A DNA stretch of 24,652 nt from a virus (IMGVR_UViG_2778261572_000014); one strand, 5' to 3'. Shown: positions 544 to 13,266, counted from the first letter of the stretch. Notes: generated from the letters alone by a model not told the origin. Translations and numbers: made by a program.

Positions 544-1539
544 TTATGGGCAATATCTGGACAACTCAGCCACAGGATTAAAGCGCACAGCATCCTGCAG
601 ATAATCCGGTGCAAAATGGGCATAAGTCATCGTCTGCTGAATAGTGCTATGCCCAAGTATTCTCTGCAAAGTGATGATATTCCCACCATTAATCATGAAG
701 TGAGTGGCAAAGGTATGCCGTAAAACATGTATCGACTGCCCTTCAGGAAGATCAGGCCTCACCTTTCTGATAGCAGCTCTGACAGCGGCATAACTTGGAT
801 AAATTAAACGACCAGTGGCCTTTGTTTTAATCATGCACTCCAGTTCTGACGATATAGGTATAACGCGACGCTTCCCATTTTTGGTTTCCATAAAAATGAC
901 TTTGCCGCTAATAACATGCTCCCCCTTGATATTTGCAACCTCACTCCATCTTCCACCTGTTGCCAGACACAACAAGACAGCTTTTAATTCATCACCAGAT
1001 AACAACTCCAGTAATCGTGGAATATCTTCATGATACAAATAAGCCATTTCAGGCTGTTTGATATTAAGTTTTTTCACATCATGAAACGGATTAGCCCCAG
1101 AATATTCCTCTGCGTCAATTAGTTTTGTGAAGAAACCACTCATCATTGCGCAATAACGATTAACCGTGGATTGTTTTATTCCGCGGTTAAGCAACAATAA
1201 CCGATAATTAATTATGTTCTTACGAGTAAGTTGGTCGCTGCGTGTAACATTAATACTCTCAAGATCACTAATGACCGCAGAAATACGCACTCGCTCCATC
1301 GCACCGTAAGGATGATTTTTCCCGTGGTATAGCCACCAACAATCCAGCAACTCCCTCAGCGAGCGCCGTTCTGTTGGCTTATCAACCCAGTCTTTGTCGT
1401 GGTAATGCTGCAATACATGACGCTCATACAAAACAGCCTCACCACGAGTATCAAATCGCCGCCTGAATCTTTTTCCTTCTGATCCAGCTGGCCGCACGTC
1501 CACACAGAATTTGCCATTAGCGAGCTTCTTAATCGACAT
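544..1539 (-). CDS. int: Tyrosine integrase, P2 Int family
   Basis: 331 aa from ATG 1539, which has GGAGGG 7 nt upstream; the ORF track's upstream ATG at 1575 lacks an SD. N-terminus MSIKKLANGKFCVDVRPAGSEGKRFRRRFD parallels P2 Int; C-terminal HVLRHTFATHFMINGGNIITLQRILGHSTIQQTMTYAHFAP carries the R..H-R-H..Y catalytic box. Confidence 0.9.
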   Translation of the reverse strand: MSIKKLANGKFCVDVRPAGSEGKRFRRRFDTRGEAVLYERHVLQHYHDKDWVDKPTERRSLRELLDCWWLYHGKNHPYGAMERVRISAVISDLESINVTRSDQLTRKNIINYRLLLLNRGIKQSTVNRYCAMMSGFFTKLIDAEEYSGANPFHDVKKLNIKQPEMAYLYHEDIPRLLELLSGDELKAVLLCLATGGRWSEVANIKGEHVISGKVIFMETKNGKRRVIPISSELECMIKTKATGRLIYPSYAAVRAAIRKVRPDLPEGQSIHVLRHTFATHFMINGGNIITLQRILGHSTIQQTMTYAHFAPDYLQDAVRFNPVAELSRYCP

Positions 1540-1605
1540 AAGGAAGCCCTCCAATGAAAACATCATCTTGATCACAGCTCTGGGAAATAAATGCCTGGTG
1601 AACCG

Positions 1606-2837: not shown

Positions 2838-3116
2838 ATGACTAAAGACCATACTCAAGGTGTATTTATCCGCTTTATTGATTCTCGCGGTGAACTGTTA
2901 TTGCGTGCATCAGCTATTAATGGTGTGGCCCAGGCAAAAGACGCAACCACTCATATTTATTTGGACAGCGCCGCACAACTGATCGTGGAGCTTCCGTACC
3001 AGACTGTACGTGAAGTCATTAGCGAAGCTGAAAAGGCACGTCAGATTAATAGCGATGAACCATACATCGAAATTATCTGCATGGATTCAGAAGCTGAAAT
3101 TAAGAAAGCAGATTAA
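2838..3116 (+). CDS. Hypothetical early protein (92 aa)
   Basis: ORF beginning MTKDHTQGVFIRF. The longer track ORF from 2649 overlaps the previous gene by 180 nt in another frame, so the internal ATG 2838 is preferred. Confidence 0.45.
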   Translation: MTKDHTQGVFIRFIDSRGELLLRASAINGVAQAKDATTHIYLDSAAQLIVELPYQTVREVISEAEKARQINSDEPYIEIICMDSEAEIKKAD

Positions 3117-3127
3117 AGGGCGTTGTG

Positions 3128-3370
3128 ATGGGCAAAGAATATAAAACTCTCATTAACAAAGCACTTGAGCGTTTTTATTTTCGCTTAAGCGCATCAGGCG
3201 CTCATGCTGAACGTGCAGCCCGTGACTCATTGACCAGGGCAATCCGGAGTCTGTATGACGTGGCTTTTTACGCTGATGATCTGGATGCACTTAACGAACT
3301 TTCCGAGCTTATCTGCGCAGCAGAATGCGGGGAACATATTGAACCGTATAAGCTGGGGAATATCGCATGA
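3128..3370 (+). CDS. Hypothetical early protein (80 aa)
   Basis: ATG 3128; the track start at 3125 is a GTG one codon upstream. Stop overlaps the next small ORF (ATGA at 3367-3370). Confidence 0.5.
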   Translation: MGKEYKTLINKALERFYFRLSASGAHAERAARDSLTRAIRSLYDVAFYADDLDALNELSELICAAECGEHIEPYKLGNIA

Positions 3371-3480
3371 ATATATTTATTTCGTGGCTTGTTCTGATTT
3401 TTTCGGTGGTTTGCGCAATTGGTATTATGCGAATTATTCATTCAGTAAAAAAGATTGAACGTTTTTTCACTGGCGAATAA
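3367..3480 (+). CDS. Small hydrophobic peptide (37 aa), predicted single-pass membrane peptide
   Basis: MNIFISWLVLIFSVVCAIGIMRIIHSVKKIERFFTGE: one hydrophobic helix followed by a basic tail. Translationally coupled to the upstream ORF by ATGA overlap. Below the ORF-track size cutoff. Confidence 0.3.
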   Translation: MNIFISWLVLIFSVVCAIGIMRIIHSVKKIERFFTGE

Positions 3481-3573
3481 CAGCATAAACAAAACACAAG
3501 ATTAAATACGAAAACATGAAAACCATCCGCATTCGCGGAGGCGTTCGCACACGTAAATAACGGAGATACAAAA

Positions 3574-3948
3574 ATGTACGCAAAAGAAGAAGGCATTATT
3601 CACAACCTGAATGAAATCGCAGATATGCAAGGTGAAGTAGCAAAAGAAGCCATGGCGAATGGCCACATGGACACCGCAACTCTCTCATTAATAATCGCCA
3701 AAACTGCTACTGAAGCCGCTGAAATCATCGAAAAACAGGCTGCCGAGCTGGAAGTTATCAGGGCACAGCAAACAAAAGAAAATTCGCCAGCCACCAATAT
3801 CGGCAAGCGAGTTCGCCTCGCTGTTGCTGACGACAAAATTTACATCATCGTAGCCGAGTCTAAAGACCAGGAGAAACTCTTAATTAAGGAGATCTCCGCC
3901 AACCCCGCTCTGGAAGCTAATAAAAAAGAAGTCCGCTTCATTGACTGA
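3574..3948 (+). CDS. Hypothetical early protein (124 aa), acidic, helical-looking
   Basis: ATG 3574 with GGAGA 7 nt upstream; the antisense ORF 3600-3836 is rejected. Confidence 0.55.
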   Translation: MYAKEEGIIHNLNEIADMQGEVAKEAMANGHMDTATLSLIIAKTATEAAEIIEKQAAELEVIRAQQTKENSPATNIGKRVRLAVADDKIYIIVAESKDQEKLLIKEISANPALEANKKEVRFID

Positions 3949-3960
3949 CGGAATAACGCA

Positions 3961-4287
3961 ATGGAGAGACTGAAATACATCGTGGCCCTGCTGGGCCACA
4001 TCATCAGGACCGCAACCGGCTTTTACTATCGCCCGTTCAGTGCGTCATGGGATGGGGCATTAGAACAACTACTGGGTGAAGGTTCACTCGTAACCGTGAA
4101 TCGGCATAACGCGATTTTTTATTACGGCGAGAACTTCTTTGAGGTGTGGGTAGCTAACCGCTGGTATGGCTACGGCTGGCTTAACCGCGTTAATGGTTCT
4201 GACGCCAACAATCGAACTCGCCCACGCTTTCGCACCATGTACCGCCTGCATCAAATGGTGCAGGCCTTCCAGGCTAAGGAAACGTAA
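3961..4287 (+). CDS. Hypothetical early protein (108 aa), aromatic-rich
   Basis: ATG 3961, co-oriented. No family recognised. Confidence 0.5.
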   Translation: MERLKYIVALLGHIIRTATGFYYRPFSASWDGALEQLLGEGSLVTVNRHNAIFYYGENFFEVWVANRWYGYGWLNRVNGSDANNRTRPRFRTMYRLHQMVQAFQAKET

Positions 4288-5463: not shown

Positions 5464-5583
5464 GTGATCATAATGCACACACAAAAAAACCGCTTGCCAT
5501 GCCGCAATCAGTCAGGTTACATTTCCGCTGCACCTCATAAAACGGGTGCCGGGTTTCGCAGCCTGCTGACTACAAGAGCGCAC

Positions 5584-5604
5584 AACCGCGCCAGCGGTTT
5601 TTTT
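5584..5604 (+). terminator. Intrinsic terminator candidate inside the early operon
   Basis: AACCGC-GCCA-GCGGTT stem-loop followed by a T-run (TTTTTTT through 5604), about 120 bp after the 4903-5463 ORF. Confidence 0.45.
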
Positions 5605-5783
5605 GTGCGTACTGTATTGCCACGTTTTTTTCGCGTCAGAATTATGGCGGGGCGTACGGGGCCGACTTCGGTCGGGCCGGGATCTCTTGTAGCCGGTACT
5701 GCGAACCTCGTACGTCTCGCCACCCACAGTTTCGCAGCTCTGGATGGTGAGTTTTCACAACTTACTACAAGAGGCCACATATC

Positions 5784-6014
5784 ATGGCAAACCGCAAACA
5801 GCACCGCACTATCGCGGAGCGTCGTCACATCCAGACTGAAATCAACCGCAGACTTTCCCGCGCATTCCGCGTCGCTAAAATCATGCACATCAATATGCTG
5901 CATGAGCGTAGCTGCGAACTTTCAAACCTCTATTCATCCGCTGTTTTCAGCTATCTGGCGGATGATCTGCGCGAGCTTCAACAGCTCATCCAGCAGCAAA
6001 ACAAACTCCATTAA
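5784..6014 (+). CDS. Hypothetical early protein (76 aa), basic
   Basis: ATG 5784 with AAGAGG 9 nt upstream. Balanced composition, unlike the overlapping S/T/R-rich 5464-6090 frame, which is rejected. Confidence 0.5.
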   Translation: MANRKQHRTIAERRHIQTEINRRLSRAFRVAKIMHINMLHERSCELSNLYSSAVFSYLADDLRELQQLIQQQNKLH

Positions 6015-6086
6015 TTCCTGTTCCGGGCCTTTCCTGCACCTTGCGGCGGGAGGCCTTCGCACATCTGTAACAAGAGGATTGCCGCA

Positions 6087-6452
6087 ATGATTCTCGCCAA
6101 CGACTTTCTTGAATACCTGCTCAACACAGAACGTGATCTTGCCGCTCGCGTGCGTGATCGTTATGACATGTACCTGAAATCCCTGCCTGTACCGCAGCTC
6201 GCTGACGGAAAGATTGTTATTGATGGTCGCTACATGATTGACAGCCACGAGGGAAATTACAGGCTTTACCGCATTGAAGGTGGCACCCCGTCCGTTATTG
6301 GCATTTACCAGCGCCCATCCTCTGCAATTGTCGATGTGATTGCCGACAGCATCCGCATCACACATCGCCATGCCGACACAGAAGACACCGTGCTGGAAAT
6401 TCAGCGGCTGGCTGCCGTCTGCCGCGACACCCTGAATGGCATGACGAAGTAA
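6087..6452 (+). CDS. Hypothetical early protein (121 aa), immediately upstream of A
   Basis: ATG 6087 with AAGAGG 9 nt upstream. Confidence 0.5.
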   Translation: MILANDFLEYLLNTERDLAARVRDRYDMYLKSLPVPQLADGKIVIDGRYMIDSHEGNYRLYRIEGGTPSVIGIYQRPSSAIVDVIADSIRITHRHADTEDTVLEIQRLAAVCRDTLNGMTK

Positions 6453-6458
6453 ATCACT

Positions 6459-9281
6459 ATGACGGCAGAGTACATCAGGGACTGGCAACAACCGCGCCAC
6501 GCAGTGGGACGTGAAGGAACGGGGATCCCCGTTCCTGAATCTGCGCTTTCCTCCTGGCTGGATGCCTACCGGGCAGAGAACGAGCGCCGCCAGGAAATGG
6601 CTGATGCGGCGTTCTCCGCCACGCCGCTGGGCAACCTGATTAATAAAAGCCTGGATGCACAGGAAAAACAGGACAAAACCATCACACTGGCAGGAGACGC
6701 CAGAAAACAGGCACGCGGCGCGGTGGATGAAGCCATGGCCTCGCTGCGCCTGCTGCCGTCCTATCTGCGCGATCCGCTTATTCGCCACCTCTCCTTCCTG
6801 CGCAAAAAACAGGAAGTCGATCGCCGGAAAGGCAAAAAGAGCTGGCAGGCTGAACGCTACGCGCGCGGAACCCTGCGCAAAATATTCGAACGTCTGGATC
6901 GCACTGACGGACACTGGCTGACACCGGGTTATCGCTTCCTTGCCGGACGCGAACGCCTGGACGATTTGCTTTACCTGCCGCAGCTCAACAAACACCAGAT
7001 ACAGACGCTGGCCACCATGACGGCGGCGATGTTCAGCAGCACCTTCGAAAAACTCTGCGATGGCTTTGGCGCGACCGATGGCGAACTGACCATGGATGTA
7101 ACGCTGAAGGCGTATCAGATGCTGGCCCGCATGGCGTTACACCTGCACATCATGCCTCCACATTATGACGCACTGACAACAGATAAAGACCGGAGGAACG
7201 AACCGGACACGGAGCTGCTGCCGGGCGCAATCCTTCGCCTGACCTGTGCGGAATGGTGGAAACGCAAACTGTGGCTGTTACGTTGCGAGTGGAGAGAAGA
7301 ACAACTCCGCGCCGCCTGTCTGGTTTCCAGAAAAACATCACCCTATCTGAGCCAGGACGCGTTAAGCGAGTTTCGCGCACAGCGCGAGAAAACACGCGAT
7401 TTCCTGAAAAGTTTCATGCTGGAAAACGAAGACGGGTTCACGATTGATCTCGAGACAGTGTATTACGCGGGAGTAAGTAACCCGGTTCACCGTAAGGCAG
7501 AAATGATGGCCACCATGAAGGGGCTGGAACTTCTGGCCGAAGCCCGTGGCGACAAAGCGGTGTTTCTGACTGTCACCTGCCCGTCAAAATACCACGCCAC
7601 AACAGAGAACGGTCATCCGAATCCCAAATGGAACGGGGCCACCATGCGCGACTCCAGCGATTACCTGGTTAACACGTTTTTTGCAGCGGTCCGCAAGAAA
7701 CTGAACCGCGACGGCCTGCGCTGGTATGGCATCCGCACGGTGGAGCCTCACCATGACGGCACCGTGCACTGGCATATGATGGTCTTTGCTCATCCGGAAG
7801 AAATCGACACCATTGTGTCCCACACCCGCGATATTGCCATTCAGGAAGATCGTCACGAGCTGGGTGATGATATTACCCCACGCTTTAAGGCGGAGTACGT
7901 CGACGGCTCAAAAGGCACGCCAACCAGCTACATCGCCACCTACATCGGAAAGAACCTGGACAGCCGCGCCGTGGATGGCATCGACCCGAAAACGGGCAAG
8001 CCACGCGTTGACCACGAAACAGGTAAATCAATGGCCGAGAGCGTGGAGCGCGCCATCGGCTGGGCGCGCCTTCACCGGGTCCGCCAGTTCCAGTTCTTTG
8101 GCATCCCCTCCCGTCAGGTGTGGCGTGAACTCCGCCGCCTTGCCAGCCAGATGGCACGCAACCCGGAAGGCCCGCAACGGCTGAAGGATGACGCAATGGA
8201 TGCGGTACTCGCTGCCGCTGATGCCGGATGTTTTGCCACCTACATTGAAAAACAGGGTGGCGTACTTGTTCCGCGCAAGGACTACCTGATTCGCACAGCC
8301 TACGACCTCGCAGATGAGCTGAACGATTACGGCGAACAGAGTGTACAGATTTACGGGATCTGGTCGCCATTCATCGGGGAATCCTCCCGTGTGTGCACGC
8401 ATCCGGATAACTGGAAGCTGGTAAGACGTAAACCGGAAGCGGAAGACAGCGCCCGCGAAAATGGTTTTGACCTTCAGGGCGGCCCTGCCGCCCCTTGGAC
8501 TCGTGGCAATAACTGTCCCCGTGTACAGGAAACGGACAACAACGGGACAGAACAGCCGGAAGAACGGCCAGCACCGTGGCCGCAGCTCCCTGACGGCGTT
8601 GAAGTGAACGAATGGATGCGCTCACTGAAACGGCACGAACGCCGGGCGCTGATGCGTTCGCTTCGTGACAAACAGGCAAAAAACAGCAGTGATGAAATGC
8701 AGAGCTGGACACAGAGCCGCAAACAGCAGCGGCCTTTGCCTGATAACCACGAATTACTCGCTAAAGAATGGCGGGAGTCTGCCGAATCTCTCGGCCTGCA
8801 TATCGGTGAACAGCAGATGCAGCACCTGTTACGGGGCGGCAGCCTGTACGTTGACGGCAGCATCATTGCACCGCAGGGATTTGAAATTGTACGCAAACCG
8901 GATACCCGCCCGGACAGCCGAATCACGCAGCTCTGGCAGCGCCTGAGCCGTAATCACGGCGTAAGCAGCACGGAGATCCGCCATAACCCGGTCGCCGGCT
9001 ATCTGGAACAGCTGGGGATATCAGACCCCGAAGCCGCCGCACGCCTGGCATCCACACTTCAGCAGGACCAGAACACCATGAAAACCCCCGTTACCGTGCT
9101 TTCTGACATGCTGCGCGCCATCCGTGACGCAGAGCACGCACAGAGAATCAGTGAAACCACTGAACGCGCCCGCCGCAAAGCAGACCTGCTGCGGGGTAGC
9201 CTGACCAGTGGAAACAAAAAACAGACAGAAACGGGATTCATAAAACCCGTAAATGAGCAAAAAACGCGCCGCGATATATGA
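6459..9281 (+). CDS. A: Rolling-circle replication initiator endonuclease, P2 gpA family
   Basis: 940 aa. Contains TVTCPSKYH and RTVEPHHDGTVHWHMMVF (HUH-type motif), followed by YIATYIGKN, as in P2 A (LTAPSKYH, RVVEPHHDGTPHWHMMLF). C-terminal third is long and low-complexity. Confidence 0.9.
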   Translation: MTAEYIRDWQQPRHAVGREGTGIPVPESALSSWLDAYRAENERRQEMADAAFSATPLGNLINKSLDAQEKQDKTITLAGDARKQARGAVDEAMASLRLLPSYLRDPLIRHLSFLRKKQEVDRRKGKKSWQAERYARGTLRKIFERLDRTDGHWLTPGYRFLAGRERLDDLLYLPQLNKHQIQTLATMTAAMFSSTFEKLCDGFGATDGELTMDVTLKAYQMLARMALHLHIMPPHYDALTTDKDRRNEPDTELLPGAILRLTCAEWWKRKLWLLRCEWREEQLRAACLVSRKTSPYLSQDALSEFRAQREKTRDFLKSFMLENEDGFTIDLETVYYAGVSNPVHRKAEMMATMKGLELLAEARGDKAVFLTVTCPSKYHATTENGHPNPKWNGATMRDSSDYLVNTFFAAVRKKLNRDGLRWYGIRTVEPHHDGTVHWHMMVFAHPEEIDTIVSHTRDIAIQEDRHELGDDITPRFKAEYVDGSKGTPTSYIATYIGKNLDSRAVDGIDPKTGKPRVDHETGKSMAESVERAIGWARLHRVRQFQFFGIPSRQVWRELRRLASQMARNPEGPQRLKDDAMDAVLAAADAGCFATYIEKQGGVLVPRKDYLIRTAYDLADELNDYGEQSVQIYGIWSPFIGESSRVCTHPDNWKLVRRKPEAEDSARENGFDLQGGPAAPWTRGNNCPRVQETDNNGTEQPEERPAPWPQLPDGVEVNEWMRSLKRHERRALMRSLRDKQAKNSSDEMQSWTQSRKQQRPLPDNHELLAKEWRESAESLGLHIGEQQMQHLLRGGSLYVDGSIIAPQGFEIVRKPDTRPDSRITQLWQRLSRNHGVSSTEIRHNPVAGYLEQLGISDPEAAARLASTLQQDQNTMKTPVTVLSDMLRAIRDAEHAQRISETTERARRKADLLRGSLTSGNKKQTETGFIKPVNEQKTRRDI

Positions 9282-9329
9282 AGCGCGCATAAAACAGGCA
9301 AAAACGGGATTTAAAAACCCCGTAAACGA
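9229..9329. repeat. Two 28-bp direct repeats (24/28 identical), each with internal ACGGG...CCCGT dyad; candidate parC-like centromere/operator
   Basis: R1 9229-9256 AAACGGGATTCATAAAACCCGTAAATGA and R2 9302-9329 AAACGGGATTTAAAAACCCCGTAAACGA, 73 bp apart, directly upstream of parM. R1 overlaps the last codons of A. Confidence 0.45.
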
Positions 9330-9357
9330 TTAATTAATCAACATAAGGAAAATCGAC

Positions 9358-10317
9358 ATGAAAATTTGTATCGACGACGGCTCCACCAACATCAAGCTGG
9401 CATGGACTGAGAACGGCGAACGCCGCAACGCCATCAGCCCGAACAGCTTCAAATCGGAATGGTCTGCGCCGTTCGGTGGCATACAGCCCGCGAACTACAT
9501 GCTTGATGGCGTGCGCTATGGTTTTGATCCGGTCAGCGATCGCTTTGTCCAGACGACCGACACGCAATACCAGTACAGCGATGTGAATGTAATTGCCATT
9601 CATCACGCGCTGGTCAAATCAGGCATCACGCCACAGGAGGTGGATGTGGTTGTCACCCTGCCACTGAGCGAGTATTTCGACACAAACGCACAGCCGGACA
9701 TGGCCAACATCAACCGCAAAAAAGCAAACGTCATGCGCCCGGTGGCGTACCAAAACGGAAAAGCATTCACTATCCGTAACGTACGGGTTATGCCTGAATC
9801 CATTCCGGCTGGTTTTAAAGCACTGGCTGACATGAGTCCGTTTGAATCCCTGCTGATTGTGGATTTAGGCGGAACCACGCTGGATGTGGCAAAGGTTCAG
9901 GGGCAACTGGCAGGTATCAGCCAGGTGTTTTGCGATCCACACGTAGGCGTTTCCCTGATGGCCGATGCCGTACTGTCGGTGATGGCCACTAACGGTATGC
10001 GTACCAGTCACCACATCGCCAATACCATTATCGAACATCGCCATGATGAAGCCTGGCTGCGCCAGCACATCCACAATGACGCGCATTACGCCAGCCTGAT
10101 GGCGGTTATTCGTGAAAAGGAAGAAACACTGAAACAACGCGTGATCCGCGCGCTGGCGGGTTTTTCGGGTTACGGGCGGGTGATGGTTGTCGGTGGTGGG
10201 GCGGAGATTGTGGCACCCGCTATCCGCGAAGCCTGCGGAGTTAATGCGACTTTCATCACGGACGGGGTGCCACAGTTTGCTCTGGTTAATGGGCTGTACG
10301 CAATGGACAAGGAGTAA
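9358..10317 (+). CDS. parM: ParM/StbA-family actin-like segregation ATPase
   Basis: 319 aa, ATG 9358 with AAGGAA upstream. MKICIDDGSTNIKLAW..., YSDVNVIAIHHAL, VMPESIPAG, LIVDLGGTTLD, VMVVGGGAE, LVNGLY run in register with remembered plasmid R1 ParM (MLVFIDDGSTNIKLQW..., LIIDLGGTTLD, VMVIGGGAE, LVNGMY). Confidence 0.85.
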   Translation: MKICIDDGSTNIKLAWTENGERRNAISPNSFKSEWSAPFGGIQPANYMLDGVRYGFDPVSDRFVQTTDTQYQYSDVNVIAIHHALVKSGITPQEVDVVVTLPLSEYFDTNAQPDMANINRKKANVMRPVAYQNGKAFTIRNVRVMPESIPAGFKALADMSPFESLLIVDLGGTTLDVAKVQGQLAGISQVFCDPHVGVSLMADAVLSVMATNGMRTSHHIANTIIEHRHDEAWLRQHIHNDAHYASLMAVIREKEETLKQRVIRALAGFSGYGRVMVVGGGAEIVAPAIREACGVNATFITDGVPQFALVNGLYAMDKE

Positions 10318-10321
10318 ACCA

Positions 10322-10633
10322 ATGACGACACCAACCAGACGGATAAGTTTCTATCTGAAGCCCGCCGCCGTCAAGAACGAAGGTGAAGCATGCGCCTGGC
10401 TGGACAGCCTTACACCAGAAGCTCGCAAAAGCGGCCAACGCGTGGCTTTTCTGGCCGGGCTGGCACTTCTGAAAATGAATCCGGCAGAGGCTTACCGACT
10501 GGCTGCATGGGCTGATGATGAGGCGTTATCAGTGACACAAACCAGGGCAGAACACCACATGTTACAGCCAGCGCCCACCGCACAGATAACCAGCCAGCTA
10601 GCCGGAAATATCCGGGCGTTATTTCCTGAATAA
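10322..10633 (+). CDS. parR: ParR-like centromere-binding adaptor (ribbon-helix-helix)
   Basis: 103 aa, ATG 10322, 4 nt after the parM stop, AAGGAG upstream. RRISFYLKPAAV...LDSLTPEARKSGQRVAFLAGLALL...IRALFPE parallels R1 ParR (RRTIAFKLNPDV...LDSIPQGERSRLNRAALTAGLALY...LRSLFPKE). Confidence 0.7.
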   Translation: MTTPTRRISFYLKPAAVKNEGEACAWLDSLTPEARKSGQRVAFLAGLALLKMNPAEAYRLAAWADDEALSVTQTRAEHHMLQPAPTAQITSQLAGNIRALFPE

Positions 10634-10639
10634 CACAAC

Positions 10640-10661
10640 ATCAGGGCGAGTTCGCCCTGAT
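10640..10661. promoter_or_regulatory. Perfect 22-bp palindrome between parR and the PP-loop gene
   Basis: ATCAGGGCGA-GT-TCGCCCTGAT (9-bp arms), no U-tract; followed 12 bp later by AAAGGAGG and the GTG start of the next gene. Confidence 0.4.
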
Positions 10662-10685
10662 AACACTATCCAAAGGAGGCAAACA

Positions 10686-11693
10686 GTGAGCATCATTCAG
10701 CGCTGCCGAGCAGAAAACACTTTTAATTTGGTTTCCATGTCTGGCGGGAAAGACTCACTGGCGCAATGTTTGTATGCCATAGAAAACGATATACAGCATG
10801 AGCGAGTGTTTGCTGATACGGGACACGAACACCCACAAACGATGGAGTACCTTGACTACCTGGAACAAAAGCTGGGCCCAATTCGTCGCGTAAAAGCCGA
10901 CTTCACTCGCCAGATAGAAGGTAAGCGCAAATTCATTGCTGAAAAATGGCCAGTATCTCTTGTTGCAGAGTGCGGAATGACGCCTGATGAAGCAGCGGAA
11001 CGTGTTGCTCGTGCGCTGGAAATCCTCCACCCAACCGGAAATCCATTTCTTGACCTGTGCATGTGGAAAGGTCGTTTCCCGAGCACTAAAGCGCGGTTCT
11101 GTACATTCGAACTGAAACACGAACCAGTGCGCACTCAGGTGGTGCAACCTGCGCTTGATGAATATGACGAAGTTATCTCCTGGCAGGGCGTGCGTGCTCA
11201 GGAATCGCCATCGAGGGCACGCCTGCAAGTGTGGGTGGAGGATGCGGACAATACCCCCGGATTGCATGTCTATCGTCCGATTCTCAACTGGCTACATGAG
11301 GATGTTTTCGCTATTGCCAGGCGTCACGGGATTAAACCCAACCCACTCTACCAACAAGGATGCAGCCGCGTTGGGTGTATGCCATGCATTCATGCCAGAA
11401 AATCTGAACTGGCGGAAATTTTTCAGCGCTGGCCAGAGGAAATCGCCAGAGTGGCAGAGTGGGAACGATTAGTTGCAGCCTGCTCTCGCCGCGGCAACTC
11501 AACGTTTTTCCCGTCAACTCATGACCCGCGCCGGGCAGAATGTCGCATAGATGTTGTTACCGTAGACAGCTACGGAATCGAAACCTATCGCGACTGGGCA
11601 ATGACAACCCGGGGCGGCGCTCAATTTGACCTGCTGGCGAGCACGAACGATAAGGCGGTGTGCAACAGTGTTTATGCGGGAGTATGCGAATGA
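10686..11693 (+). CDS. PAPS-reductase-family PP-loop ATP pyrophosphatase-like protein (DndC/CysH-like fold), function unknown
   Basis: 335 aa. GTG start 10686 with GGAGG 6 nt upstream; no upstream in-frame ATG. N-terminal VSMSGGKDS PP-loop, FADTGHEHPQT, WQGVRAQESPSRA, and C-terminal cysteine cluster CSRVGCMPC. Confidence 0.8.
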   Translation: MSIIQRCRAENTFNLVSMSGGKDSLAQCLYAIENDIQHERVFADTGHEHPQTMEYLDYLEQKLGPIRRVKADFTRQIEGKRKFIAEKWPVSLVAECGMTPDEAAERVARALEILHPTGNPFLDLCMWKGRFPSTKARFCTFELKHEPVRTQVVQPALDEYDEVISWQGVRAQESPSRARLQVWVEDADNTPGLHVYRPILNWLHEDVFAIARRHGIKPNPLYQQGCSRVGCMPCIHARKSELAEIFQRWPEEIARVAEWERLVAACSRRGNSTFFPSTHDPRRAECRIDVVTVDSYGIETYRDWAMTTRGGAQFDLLASTNDKAVCNSVYAGVCE

Positions 11694-11768
11694 ACAGCAT
11701 GAAAATATTGTTACCCGACATCTGATTTTACTTCTTCAAATCAGGGCAATAATCACGCATCGCCCTGC

Positions 11769-11795
11769 TGCACAATAGTGCACAAATTTGCACAA
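11769..11795. repeat. Three TGCACAA direct repeats at exact 10-bp phasing
   Basis: TGCACAA at 11769, 11779 and 11789, followed by a T-run, in the non-coding interval where P2 architecture places cos and the cargo-locus promoters. Confidence 0.4.
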
Positions 11796-12167
11796 TTTTT
11801 TTGAACGACTTTTTACCCTTCCGGCCCGCATGGCGGCTGGATCCGTCAAGGATCCGTGCGTGCACAAAAAAACGCGTTTTTTCTGCGCGCAGGTGACGGG
11901 GGAACAGCCCGCGTTTCTGGGGGTAAATAGCGTTCCCTTAACGATGTCGCAGCGACACGACAGAATGGCCGTATTTCTCACGCTGAGCGTGAAAAATACG
12001 TGAGGGATTCTGGTTTGATGGGGTGAAAGGTAAGGCCGTCAAAATCGCACTGAGGCGGCGAGAACATGCAGTCAGCGCAGTGGGATTGCGTAAGAATCTG
12101 ACCGTCGATGATGGCAATAAGCAGGAAAGCATCGTGAAATTATCTGACTGATACAGGAGCTGGAGAG

Positions 12168-12192
12168 TCGGGGCATAAATTTTTTATGCCCC
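12168..12192 (-). terminator. Strong stem-loop 28 bp downstream of Q; terminator or packaging-region element
   Basis: CGGGGCATAAA-TTT-TTTATGCCCCG, a perfect 11-bp inverted repeat; lacks a clean U-tract on the Q strand. Confidence 0.35.
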
Positions 12193-12219
12193 GGCGAAGC
12201 AGCAGACAAGCGAAGCGCG

Positions 12220-13266
12220 TCAGGATGTGGGCTGGGTATCTAACAGTGCGTAAGGGTTAAAGCGGATCACCTCTTCGCCAAGCCAGTCATTGATGTGCTT
12301 CATGGCCTCCATGACGGGCATCAGCTCGTTAATTGCGTAAACCCGCGCGGCCTTCTCCACATCACCAAACGCACTTTTTTCGCCCGGCATCGCCCCCATC
12401 AGTTGCGGCGGAACGCGGTGCGCAGCCAGCACATCATCACGGGATGCCGCCTTAACATTCATGAACTCATCCTTTGCGGTGATCTGCTGGAACGGCAAAA
12501 TTTGCACCCCCTCTTTGCCCCCGTTGGGCGCATGAATGAGCACGTTTTTAAACGCACCACCACCACGTGCCCCCTGTAGCGTTTCTTTCAGGGAGTCCAT
12601 GCTTTCGCGGTTTACCTGCGCTGCACCGATGTAGATGATGCACCCGGCGTGGGATCCGTTGTCGTAGTACAGTTTTCTGAACATGTCCGCCGAATGAGAA
12701 AGGCTGGCCGAGAGTAATGCGCCAAGATATTCCGGCATGCCGTAGATTTCCTGGTTAATATCCGGATTCATCAGGTGGCACACTTTGCCAGGACGAAACT
12801 GAAACGCGTCCTTGCCATCCTGCACATACCACCATGATTCAAGATCGCTTCCGCGTCGCATGTATTTCGCCAGGGCGTGCCGTAATTTAAGCGGTTCGCC
12901 GAGCATATTGCTCCGAAGCTCAAGGAATGCGTTACCGAACACAAACCAGTCCAGCGCCAGCGCCGAGAAATCCTGCCGGGAAAGCAGCGGGTGCGGAATA
13001 TAGCAGCCGAGCAATACATTGCGCTTAAAGTAAAGCGCAGACTGATGCCAGGACGTTTGCCGGGCAGCTCTTGCCAGACCGTACCAGTTCACCGGGGTTT
13101 CATACCACCGCCCGTTATCAGCACAGTACATATTGTCCAGCAGGTCATGCCCGGTCAGGCGATAAGGACCATCAAATGTGAATGCACTGAGCGATGATTC
13201 TTTCCTGAGCGCATCAGCGAGATCAATGCGTGAACTCATGCGCACTTTTTTATTTTTTCTGCTCAT
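12220..13266 (-). CDS. Q: Portal protein, P2 gpQ family
   Basis: 348 aa (P2 Q about 344 aa). Minus strand directly downstream of P, with its ATG overlapping the P stop. Position and size match the P2 Q-P capsid operon. Confidence 0.85.
   Translation of the reverse strand: MSRKNKKVRMSSRIDLADALRKESSLSAFTFDGPYRLTGHDLLDNMYCADNGRWYETPVNWYGLARAARQTSWHQSALYFKRNVLLGCYIPHPLLSRQDFSALALDWFVFGNAFLELRSNMLGEPLKLRHALAKYMRRGSDLESWWYVQDGKDAFQFRPGKVCHLMNPDINQEIYGMPEYLGALLSASLSHSADMFRKLYYDNGSHAGCIIYIGAAQVNRESMDSLKETLQGARGGGAFKNVLIHAPNGGKEGVQILPFQQITAKDEFMNVKAASRDDVLAAHRVPPQLMGAMPGEKSAFGDVEKAARVYAINELMPVMEAMKHINDWLGEEVIRFNPYALLDTQPTS

Follow-up and report, generated by a model that had tools for sequence, protein, structure and literature searches.

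Two probably unrelated modules, a ParMR partition cassette and a mobile PP-loop enzyme gene, in the gpA-portal interval of a P88-like prophage

Do three neighbouring genes that encode the actin-like ATPase ParM, the adaptor protein ParR and a PP-loop enzyme with the fold of 3'-phosphoadenosine-5'-phosphosulfate (PAPS) reductases form one system, or are they neighbours by accident? This question is raised by the viral sequence IMGVR_UViG_2778261572_000014, a stretch of 24,652 nucleotides that was analysed over its whole length (the window) and in which the three genes lie between the replication gene gpA and the portal gene gpQ of a P2-like prophage. An earlier note on this DNA had described them as a single cargo island. 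We consider it probable, at roughly 0.78, that the interval consists of two unrelated modules which became neighbours through an accident of insertion. What is reported below on the identity of the genes, their boundaries and distribution, the selection acting on them and their motifs was obtained directly, whereas the mechanisms of both modules are what we infer.

The region 9200-11800 (positions are counted from the first letter of the window) was used as megablast query against 5426 complete E. coli genomes. The part comprising the end of gpA, parM and parR was found in 1308 of these genomes (roughly 24%), and this type of gpA was present in 1321 (coverage ≥ 80%). As ParMR accompanies essentially every member of the lineage with this gpA type, it belongs to the backbone and not to the cargo, and it is a fixed feature of the P88-like lineage, sited directly after gene A. 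All phage matches to the query region were P88-like members of the genus Xuanwuvirus (Peduoviridae). The entire query was matched in one genome only (NZ_CP136025), whose copy of the third gene carries an internal stop and is a pseudogene, and a close allele of the PAPS-reductase-like gene occurred in one of the 5426 genomes.

The border between the two modules was located by pairwise blastn. Homology to phage P88 ends at 10664 and restarts at 11769, and homology to an O103:H2 prophage ends at 10659 and restarts at 11736; because the homology to P88 stops at 10664 and returns at 11736 or 11769, the cargo comprises one gene only. Ead/Ea22-like, ClpX-type zinc-finger or hypothetical genes occupy this slot in other P88-like phages. 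The segment 10671-11693, which begins 15 nt ahead of the start codon of the PAPS-reductase-like gene and ends with its stop, is 97.6% identical to a contig of a lambdoid prophage, in which the gene is surrounded by DnaT-like, lambda-P-like, DUF1064 and Ead/Ea22 genes. The PAPS-reductase-like gene is the only true cargo here, a mobile single-gene cassette exchanged among prophages. In a context survey of 80 IMG/VR loci encoding proteins with 81-98% identity to the enzyme, ParM or ParR was found within about 4 kb of the gene in none. The juxtaposition of ParMR and the PP-loop gene is a rare, incidental cargo configuration.

The earlier note had made its case for one island depend on co-conservation of the three genes in related prophages. 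This was surveyed and is absent, since ParMR and the PAPS-reductase-like gene occur together in only 1 of the 1308 genomes and in none of the 80 viral loci, and since the homology break delimits a one-gene cassette; the claim of a three-gene island or system had to be given up. With the association being incidental, a "new three-gene system" would be of no importance. That ParM, ParR and the PP-loop enzyme nonetheless act as one functional system, for example as a filament-forming exclusion or defence module, is extremely improbable, even though the genes share their orientation, are tightly spaced, probably share a transcript and sit in a hotspot known for anti-phage systems. In addition to the distribution and to the pseudogene in the one complete genome with all three genes, PADLOC gave no match for ParM or ParR.

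Some observations weigh against the reading as two unrelated modules and the functions proposed for them below. At least three E. coli assemblies contain all three genes together. The PAPS-reductase-like gene is co-oriented with parMR and starts 52 nt downstream, there is no plus-strand terminator between them, and a promoter scan of 9000-12300 detected no sigma-70-like promoter. For these reasons parMR and the PAPS-reductase-like gene are probably co-transcribed, judging from the sequence, and a functional interplay is conceivable. The repeats upstream of parM might act merely as an operator, as there are far fewer sites than in parC of plasmid R1. Furthermore, a complete circular P88-like genome of 34,461 bp (NZ_CP148288.1) was deposited as a plasmid, and in the literature searched no functional study of ParMR or of the PAPS-reductase-like enzyme in P2-like phages was found.

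The transcript itself plausibly is an extension of the early A operon, because no promoter was detected in 9000-12300, the hairpin behind parR has no U-run on the plus strand and a terminator-like element is present at 11778-11803. This element lies in the conserved right flank and is the probable end of the plus-strand transcript of the hotspot. The GC-rich hairpin behind parR sits exactly at the junction of backbone and cargo and is terminator-like for the minus strand only; it would shield parR against antisense transcription from inserted cargo. The coordinates of these elements and of the genes are listed in Table 1.

Table 1. Features of the window that are relevant to the gpA-portal interval.
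Feature	Position	Strand	Evidence and remarks
Integrase	544-1575	-	Kept in the integrated prophage
gpA replication endonuclease, 940 aa	6459-9281	+	PF05840 (5.8e-132); left boundary of the hotspot
Repeat 1, candidate ParR-binding site (parC-like/operator)	9230-9253		Motif of ~24 nt, inside the 3' end of gpA
Repeat 2, candidate ParR-binding site	9303-9326		Motif of ~24 nt, located 32 nt ahead of parM
ParM actin-like ATPase, 319 aa	9358-10317	+	PF06406 (1.5e-81), PF21523 (1.5e-68); lineage backbone
ParR/StbB adaptor, 103 aa	10322-10633	+	PF10784 Plasmid_stab_B (6e-24), phrog_2515 (1.4e-56); lineage backbone
GC-rich hairpin	10639-10662		RNA fold -18.6 kcal/mol, z -4.2; without U-run on the plus strand
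Variable cargo slot, one gene	10665-11735		Homology breaks to P88 and the O103:H2 prophage
PAPS-reductase-fold PP-loop enzyme, 335 aa	10686-11693	+	PF01507 (2.2e-36); GTG start, ribosome-binding site AAGGAGG 6 nt upstream
Terminator-like hairpin with T-run	11778-11803	+	In the conserved right flank common to P88 and the O103:H2 prophage
Portal gpQ	12220-13266	-	Open reading frame; 99-100% identical to annotated portal proteins of two E. coli assemblies (L001, L002); right boundary of the hotspot

The prophage is P88-like (Xuanwuvirus, Peduoviridae), thus P2-like, and is integrated in a segment of the E. coli chromosome beside chpSB. The first 560 nt of the window match the chpS-chpB toxin-antitoxin locus of strains cq9 and U90 to 100%, and a "phage integrase" is annotated at that junction there. 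The prophage also carries genes for a helix-turn-helix (HTH) repressor and Cox. In P2, the variable hotspot is defined as the region beside cos that is bounded by replication gene A and portal gene Q (Rousset et al. 2022, PMC9122126), and anti-phage systems are known from this gpA-gpQ hotspot (PMC9122126). The gene content of the window confirmed the position at the tin/old locus of P2 that had been assumed before, with gpA and the portal gene as boundaries and with differing cargo among P88-like phages. Exactly three family-assignable open reading frames (ORFs), all on the plus strand, were found in the interval, which agrees with the ParM, ParR and PAPS-reductase-fold proteins named in the earlier note. 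As the interval holds no other family-assignable ORF, tin and old are absent, as had likewise been stated. From 12220 onward the terminase genes, too, are encoded on the minus strand.

Two further regions of the early operon upstream of gpA drew attention. Matches at the gathering level of Rfam were obtained for isrK (5530-5604, plus strand, 66.7 bits) and for C4 antisense RNA (5640-5727, plus strand, 81.1 bits), both within an ORF at 5464-6090 that has a weak match to the Ash family. This region looks like a C4 antisense-RNA immunity or antirepressor module of the P1/P7/P4 style in a P2-like prophage. Additionally, two ORFs without assigned function (phrog_9338 and phrog_16975; 3574-4287, plus strand) are located between DUF4754 and a MarR-like gene. 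They start right after a stretch of low GC content (41%, 3001-3500), and other small genes are present there in two of the E. coli assemblies (L001, L002), so that 3574-4287 may be a second variable slot of the early operon.

The profile searches identified the first two genes as a genuine type II ParM/ParR pair, which is preceded by a repeat. ParM matched structures of R1 ParM with an E-value of 2.6e-92 (46% identity over 317 columns), and the nucleotide-binding motifs DDGSTNIK, DLGGTTLD and GGGAE are aligned and retained. For ParR, the phrog_2515 match spans residues 46-148 of a longer, mechanically derived ORF, and an identical gene call of 103 aa exists in one of the E. coli assemblies (L002); together with PF10784 this upholds the assignment of a ParR gene that begins 4 nt downstream of the parM stop. 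A PDB sequence search gave no match for ParR, and neither ParM, ParR nor the PAPS-reductase-like protein passed a curated cut-off of NCBIfam. The ratio of nonsynonymous to synonymous substitution rates (dN/dS) of ParM was 0.06-0.09 in comparison to relatives and that of gpA 0.12-0.15, indicating that purifying selection is stronger on ParM. ParR is less constrained; four of its five comparisons gave a dN/dS of 0.33-0.42.

Upstream of parM, exactly two copies of the repeat motif are present, 73 bp apart, each with a 20-bp palindrome of the form ACGGGATT-N4-AAYCCCGT. No match to this palindrome occurred in 100 shuffles. Both palindromes are kept in an alignment of P88-like relatives, several of which have the near-perfect form ACGGGATT-N4-AATCCCGT, and one complete P88-like genome of 34.5 kb contained no further candidate sites beyond these two. 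The iteron-like repeats that had been reported for this region are therefore real, but they are two palindromes and not an iteron array. With 940 aa, the gpA of this prophage is longer than that of a Dickeya P2-like phage (723 aa), and its extra C-terminal region overlaps the first candidate ParR-binding site, so that the coding sequence of gene A and the parC-like site are interleaved.

In the mechanism proposed here, ParR dimers would bind to the two 20-bp palindromes, ATP-bound ParM filaments would capture the ParR-DNA complexes, and circular phage genomes might thereby be moved or positioned. Copies that are not integrated, have been excised or are replicating would be the likeliest targets, while the phage becomes established or after induction. 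A role of ParMR in handling circular phage genomes at these two stages, which does not imply a plasmid life of the prophage, is favoured here because 1457 of the 1459 E. coli matches to the query were chromosomal.

It is rather unlikely that ParMRC instead maintains P88-like phages as low-copy plasmids, that is, in a phage-plasmid or stable pseudolysogenic lifestyle. Such a lifestyle was speculated on by Rousset et al. 2022 (PMC9122126), and it would fit the close homologue of R1 ParM, the ParR and the upstream repeat, the strong purifying selection on ParM and the genome NZ_CP148288.1 mentioned above. This genome, however, may be excised phage DNA caught by the assembly; a 99.9% identical region is chromosomal in another strain. 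Among the best matches listed from the E. coli collection, the host assembly of NZ_CP148288.1 was absent. Apart from the chromosomal location of nearly all matches, the prophage in the window is integrated beside chpSB and has kept its integrase, and no theta-type plasmid replicon was identified in the window. The gpA of P2 is moreover a rolling-circle initiator. With respect to its gene content, NZ_CP148288.1 (1-34461) encodes an integrase, ParMR, structural proteins, Hok/Gef and a Com/methyltransferase pair, and it is labelled as non-mobilizable.

The third gene encodes a protein in which the PP-loop motif SGGKDS is intact (residues 19-24). This motif is invariant in 57 relatives and conserved in at least 70-90% of 124 diverse representatives obtained by 50% clustering. 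Cys139, Cys231, Cys234 and Cys334 were found in 98-100% of these representatives, and Cys125 and Cys326 in about 80%. The AlphaFold2 model has a mean predicted local distance difference test value of 77; residues 1-230 mostly exceed 85, and nothing was concluded from the C-terminal ~65 residues, which are of low confidence. A Foldseek search of the PDB with this model returned PAPS and adenosine-5'-phosphosulfate (APS) reductases as best matches (E ~1e-7), with the [4Fe-4S] tRNA sulfurtransferase TtuA next, a similarity that reflects the generic fold only. With SGGxDS on a Rossmann-like alpha/beta fold, the protein belongs to the PP-loop ATP pyrophosphatase superfamily. It has a helical insert of ~65 aa and an extra C-terminal region of 100 aa, and its C-terminus reads ...AGVCE, without the catalytic motif ECGLH. 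Longer homologues, as found in a search for domain fusions, mostly contain larger internal inserts; one shows a weak methyltransferase-like match at its N-terminus.

Several named families were considered for this protein and rejected. The curated models of CysH and APS reductases scored far below their cut-offs (NF002537 62.8 vs 154 bits, TIGR02057 39.9 vs 254, TIGR02055 49.9 vs 235), and so did the DndC model (TIGR03183 22 vs 290.4 bits), with no dnd genes present in the window. PADLOC gave partial similarities to SspD (5.5e-25, 70-202 of 277), BrxP (1.7e-13, 212-335 of 779) and DndC (4e-08). As these profile matches are only partial and neither sspABC nor brxC, pglZ or brxL partners accompany the gene, an SspD or BrxP identity and thereby a catalogued defence system were dismissed. 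The earlier description of a PAPS-reductase-fold PP-loop enzyme that fits no named system thus proved correct. The gene belongs to a widely annotated, functionally uncharacterised family of phage "PAPS reductases".

This family is large. Among the scored candidates, 5713 matches at E ≤ 1e-5 were obtained, with 75-99% identical copies across Enterobacterales, and a library clustered at 50% contained 2757 clusters at E ≤ 1e-3, of which 362 reached E ≤ 1e-30. Members of the family were detected in 68 of the 5426 complete E. coli genomes, where the gene, among the matches listed, mostly adjoins a "replication endonuclease". In 60 of the 80 surveyed IMG/VR loci the gpA of other P2-like phages follows immediately downstream; on the upstream side, 32 loci have a D12 Dam methylase and 28 a TraR/DksA zinc-finger protein. 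A Dickeya prophage shows the order Dam, Dcm, PAPS-reductase-like gene, gpA. Eight lambdoid relatives (L004-L006, L013-L014, L066, L069 and L085) have a ParB-HTH protein of 260-300 aa in front of the enzyme, and in five of them (L004-L006, L066 and L069), near exc/int, the stop and start codons of the two genes overlap. No ParB-like partner is present in the window. Compared with the lambdoid copy, the dN/dS of the gene is 0.094, which indicates purifying selection. Together with the varied early contexts, this argues for a functional, promiscuous early-region phage gene.

The enzyme, a PP-loop ATP pyrophosphatase, has a C-terminal cysteine and probably a [4Fe-4S] site. In other phages its gene lies in early operons linked to replication, between Dam and gpA in P2-like phages and behind the ParB-HTH gene or in a nin-like region in lambdoid phages. 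Early in infection the enzyme could adenylate nucleic acid and probably transfer sulfur onto it in an Fe-S-dependent manner. A PP-loop of the ATP type, the pattern of cysteines and the recurrent neighbours, namely DNA methylases, gpA and ParB-HTH proteins, are the reasons for proposing this adenylating and thiolating activity. We infer from the sequence that the enzyme is expressed early and modifies nucleic acid, likely for protection, or counters restriction; as it habitually lies beside DNA methylases and a replication initiator, it can reasonably be regarded as a candidate for an undescribed activity of this kind.

The location in the P2 defence hotspot and the PADLOC similarities could also suggest a lysogen-protective anti-phage cargo, with the gene product as a component like BrxP, SspD or DndC. 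This is improbable, given that Ssp, Dnd or BREX partner genes were found neither in the interval nor in the window and that the DndC score amounts to 22 of the required 290 bits. Moreover, 60 of the 80 relatives lie outside the hotspot, in an early lytic operon directly ahead of gpA, and this placement argues for a role that benefits the phage in the lytic phase. An auxiliary metabolic function, in which a CysH-type PAPS/APS reductase boosts sulfur assimilation, is very improbable. The Pfam and RefSeq names, the best structural matches and the Fe-S-type cysteines, which resemble those of APS reductases, are in line with it. All curated CysH/APS models, however, stay below their cut-offs, the ATP-type SGGKDS is intact, the ECGLH tail is missing, the helical insert and the extra C-terminal region are present, and DNA methylases, gpA and ParB-HTH proteins consistently recur next to the gene. 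Two more far-reaching readings are tentative, and we regard them as possible only: that the widespread enzyme family (362 clusters at E ≤ 1e-30, typically placed between Dam and gpA) installs a new adenylation-dependent counter-defence modification, and that ParMR actively positions or segregates P2-like genomes during establishment or induction.

A partition cassette in an integrated prophage had appeared unexpected in the earlier note. This impression did not last, as ParMR is already known descriptively: Rousset et al. 2022 (PMC9122126) report a putative plasmid partitioning system at this hotspot for about a quarter of the P2-like phages of E. coli, and P88 and RefSeq records annotate the ParM and ParR genes. 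The supplementary tables of the same study (PMC9122126) contain further combinations of StbA and Plasmid_stab_B, and the frequency of ParMR of about one in four E. coli genomes determined here agrees with its figure for P2-like phages. Surveys of P2-like phages from 2026 mention neither ParM nor PAPS. The remaining value of the locus lies in the functions of ParMR and of the PP-loop enzyme. An R1-type ParMR is maintained under strong purifying selection in integrated P2-like prophages of ~24% of the complete E. coli genomes; its role was speculated on in the literature searched, and no test of it was found there. The gene of the PP-loop/Fe-S enzyme, well conserved and mobile among phages, is a lead toward an undescribed nucleic-acid modification or anti-restriction activity. 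If the proposals are true, a modification by the enzyme (for example a thio-modification) would mark phage DNA or RNA against host defence, and positioning by ParMR would be an actin-based step in the life cycle of a classical temperate phage. Neither of them needs the three genes to be a system.

In comparison to known systems, the enzyme shares the PAPS-reductase-fold PP-loop domain and an Fe-S-compatible cysteine pattern with DndC, SspD and BrxP of phosphorothioation and type 4 BREX systems; it differs from them in that it stands alone, without Dnd, Ssp or BREX partners, and is borne by phages in early operons. With the CysH PAPS/APS reductases it has the core fold in common, and its CxxC aligns to the Fe-S CxxC region of the APS reductase 2goy, whereas the intact SGGKDS ATP pyrophosphatase motif, the extra insert and C-terminal region and the lack of ECGLH set it apart. 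Sulfonucleotide reductases are not known to have an intact ATP-type PP-loop SGGKDS. The PAPS-reductase-like proteins IbrA and YbdN are paired with the ParB-like proteins IbrB and YbdM. The pair of ParB-HTH protein and enzyme in the lambdoid relatives, though not in the window, resembles IbrB-IbrA and YbdM/YbdN and is regarded as a lead only; in the enzyme studied here no DUF3440 domain was found, in which it differs from IbrA/YbdN.

For ParMR, the cassettes of P88 and other Xuanwuvirus phages are the same (96-98% nucleotide identity) and occupy the same position; only the downstream cargo gene is different. ParMRC of plasmid R1 has the same order of site, parM and parR, with repeated DNA sites upstream, a full-length ParM with 46% identity and a ParR (StbB) of the same Pfam family. 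The parC of R1 has 10 iterons of 11 bp, in direct orientation and arranged around a promoter, whereas only two 20-bp palindromes, 73 bp apart and one of them inside gene A, are present here, and the cassette resides on an integrating P2-like phage, right after the gene of the rolling-circle initiator. AlpA and AlpC of prophage CGP3 belong to a distant actin-like family and a Gram-positive host, Corynebacterium glutamicum, and as their sequences were not compared they provide an analogy only. They are reported to be necessary for efficient replication and transport of the viral DNA (PMC4446434, PMC5539076). As an actin-like ATPase with a DNA-binding adaptor on a chromosomally integrated prophage, this pair is the best functional precedent for the ParMR of P88-like phages.

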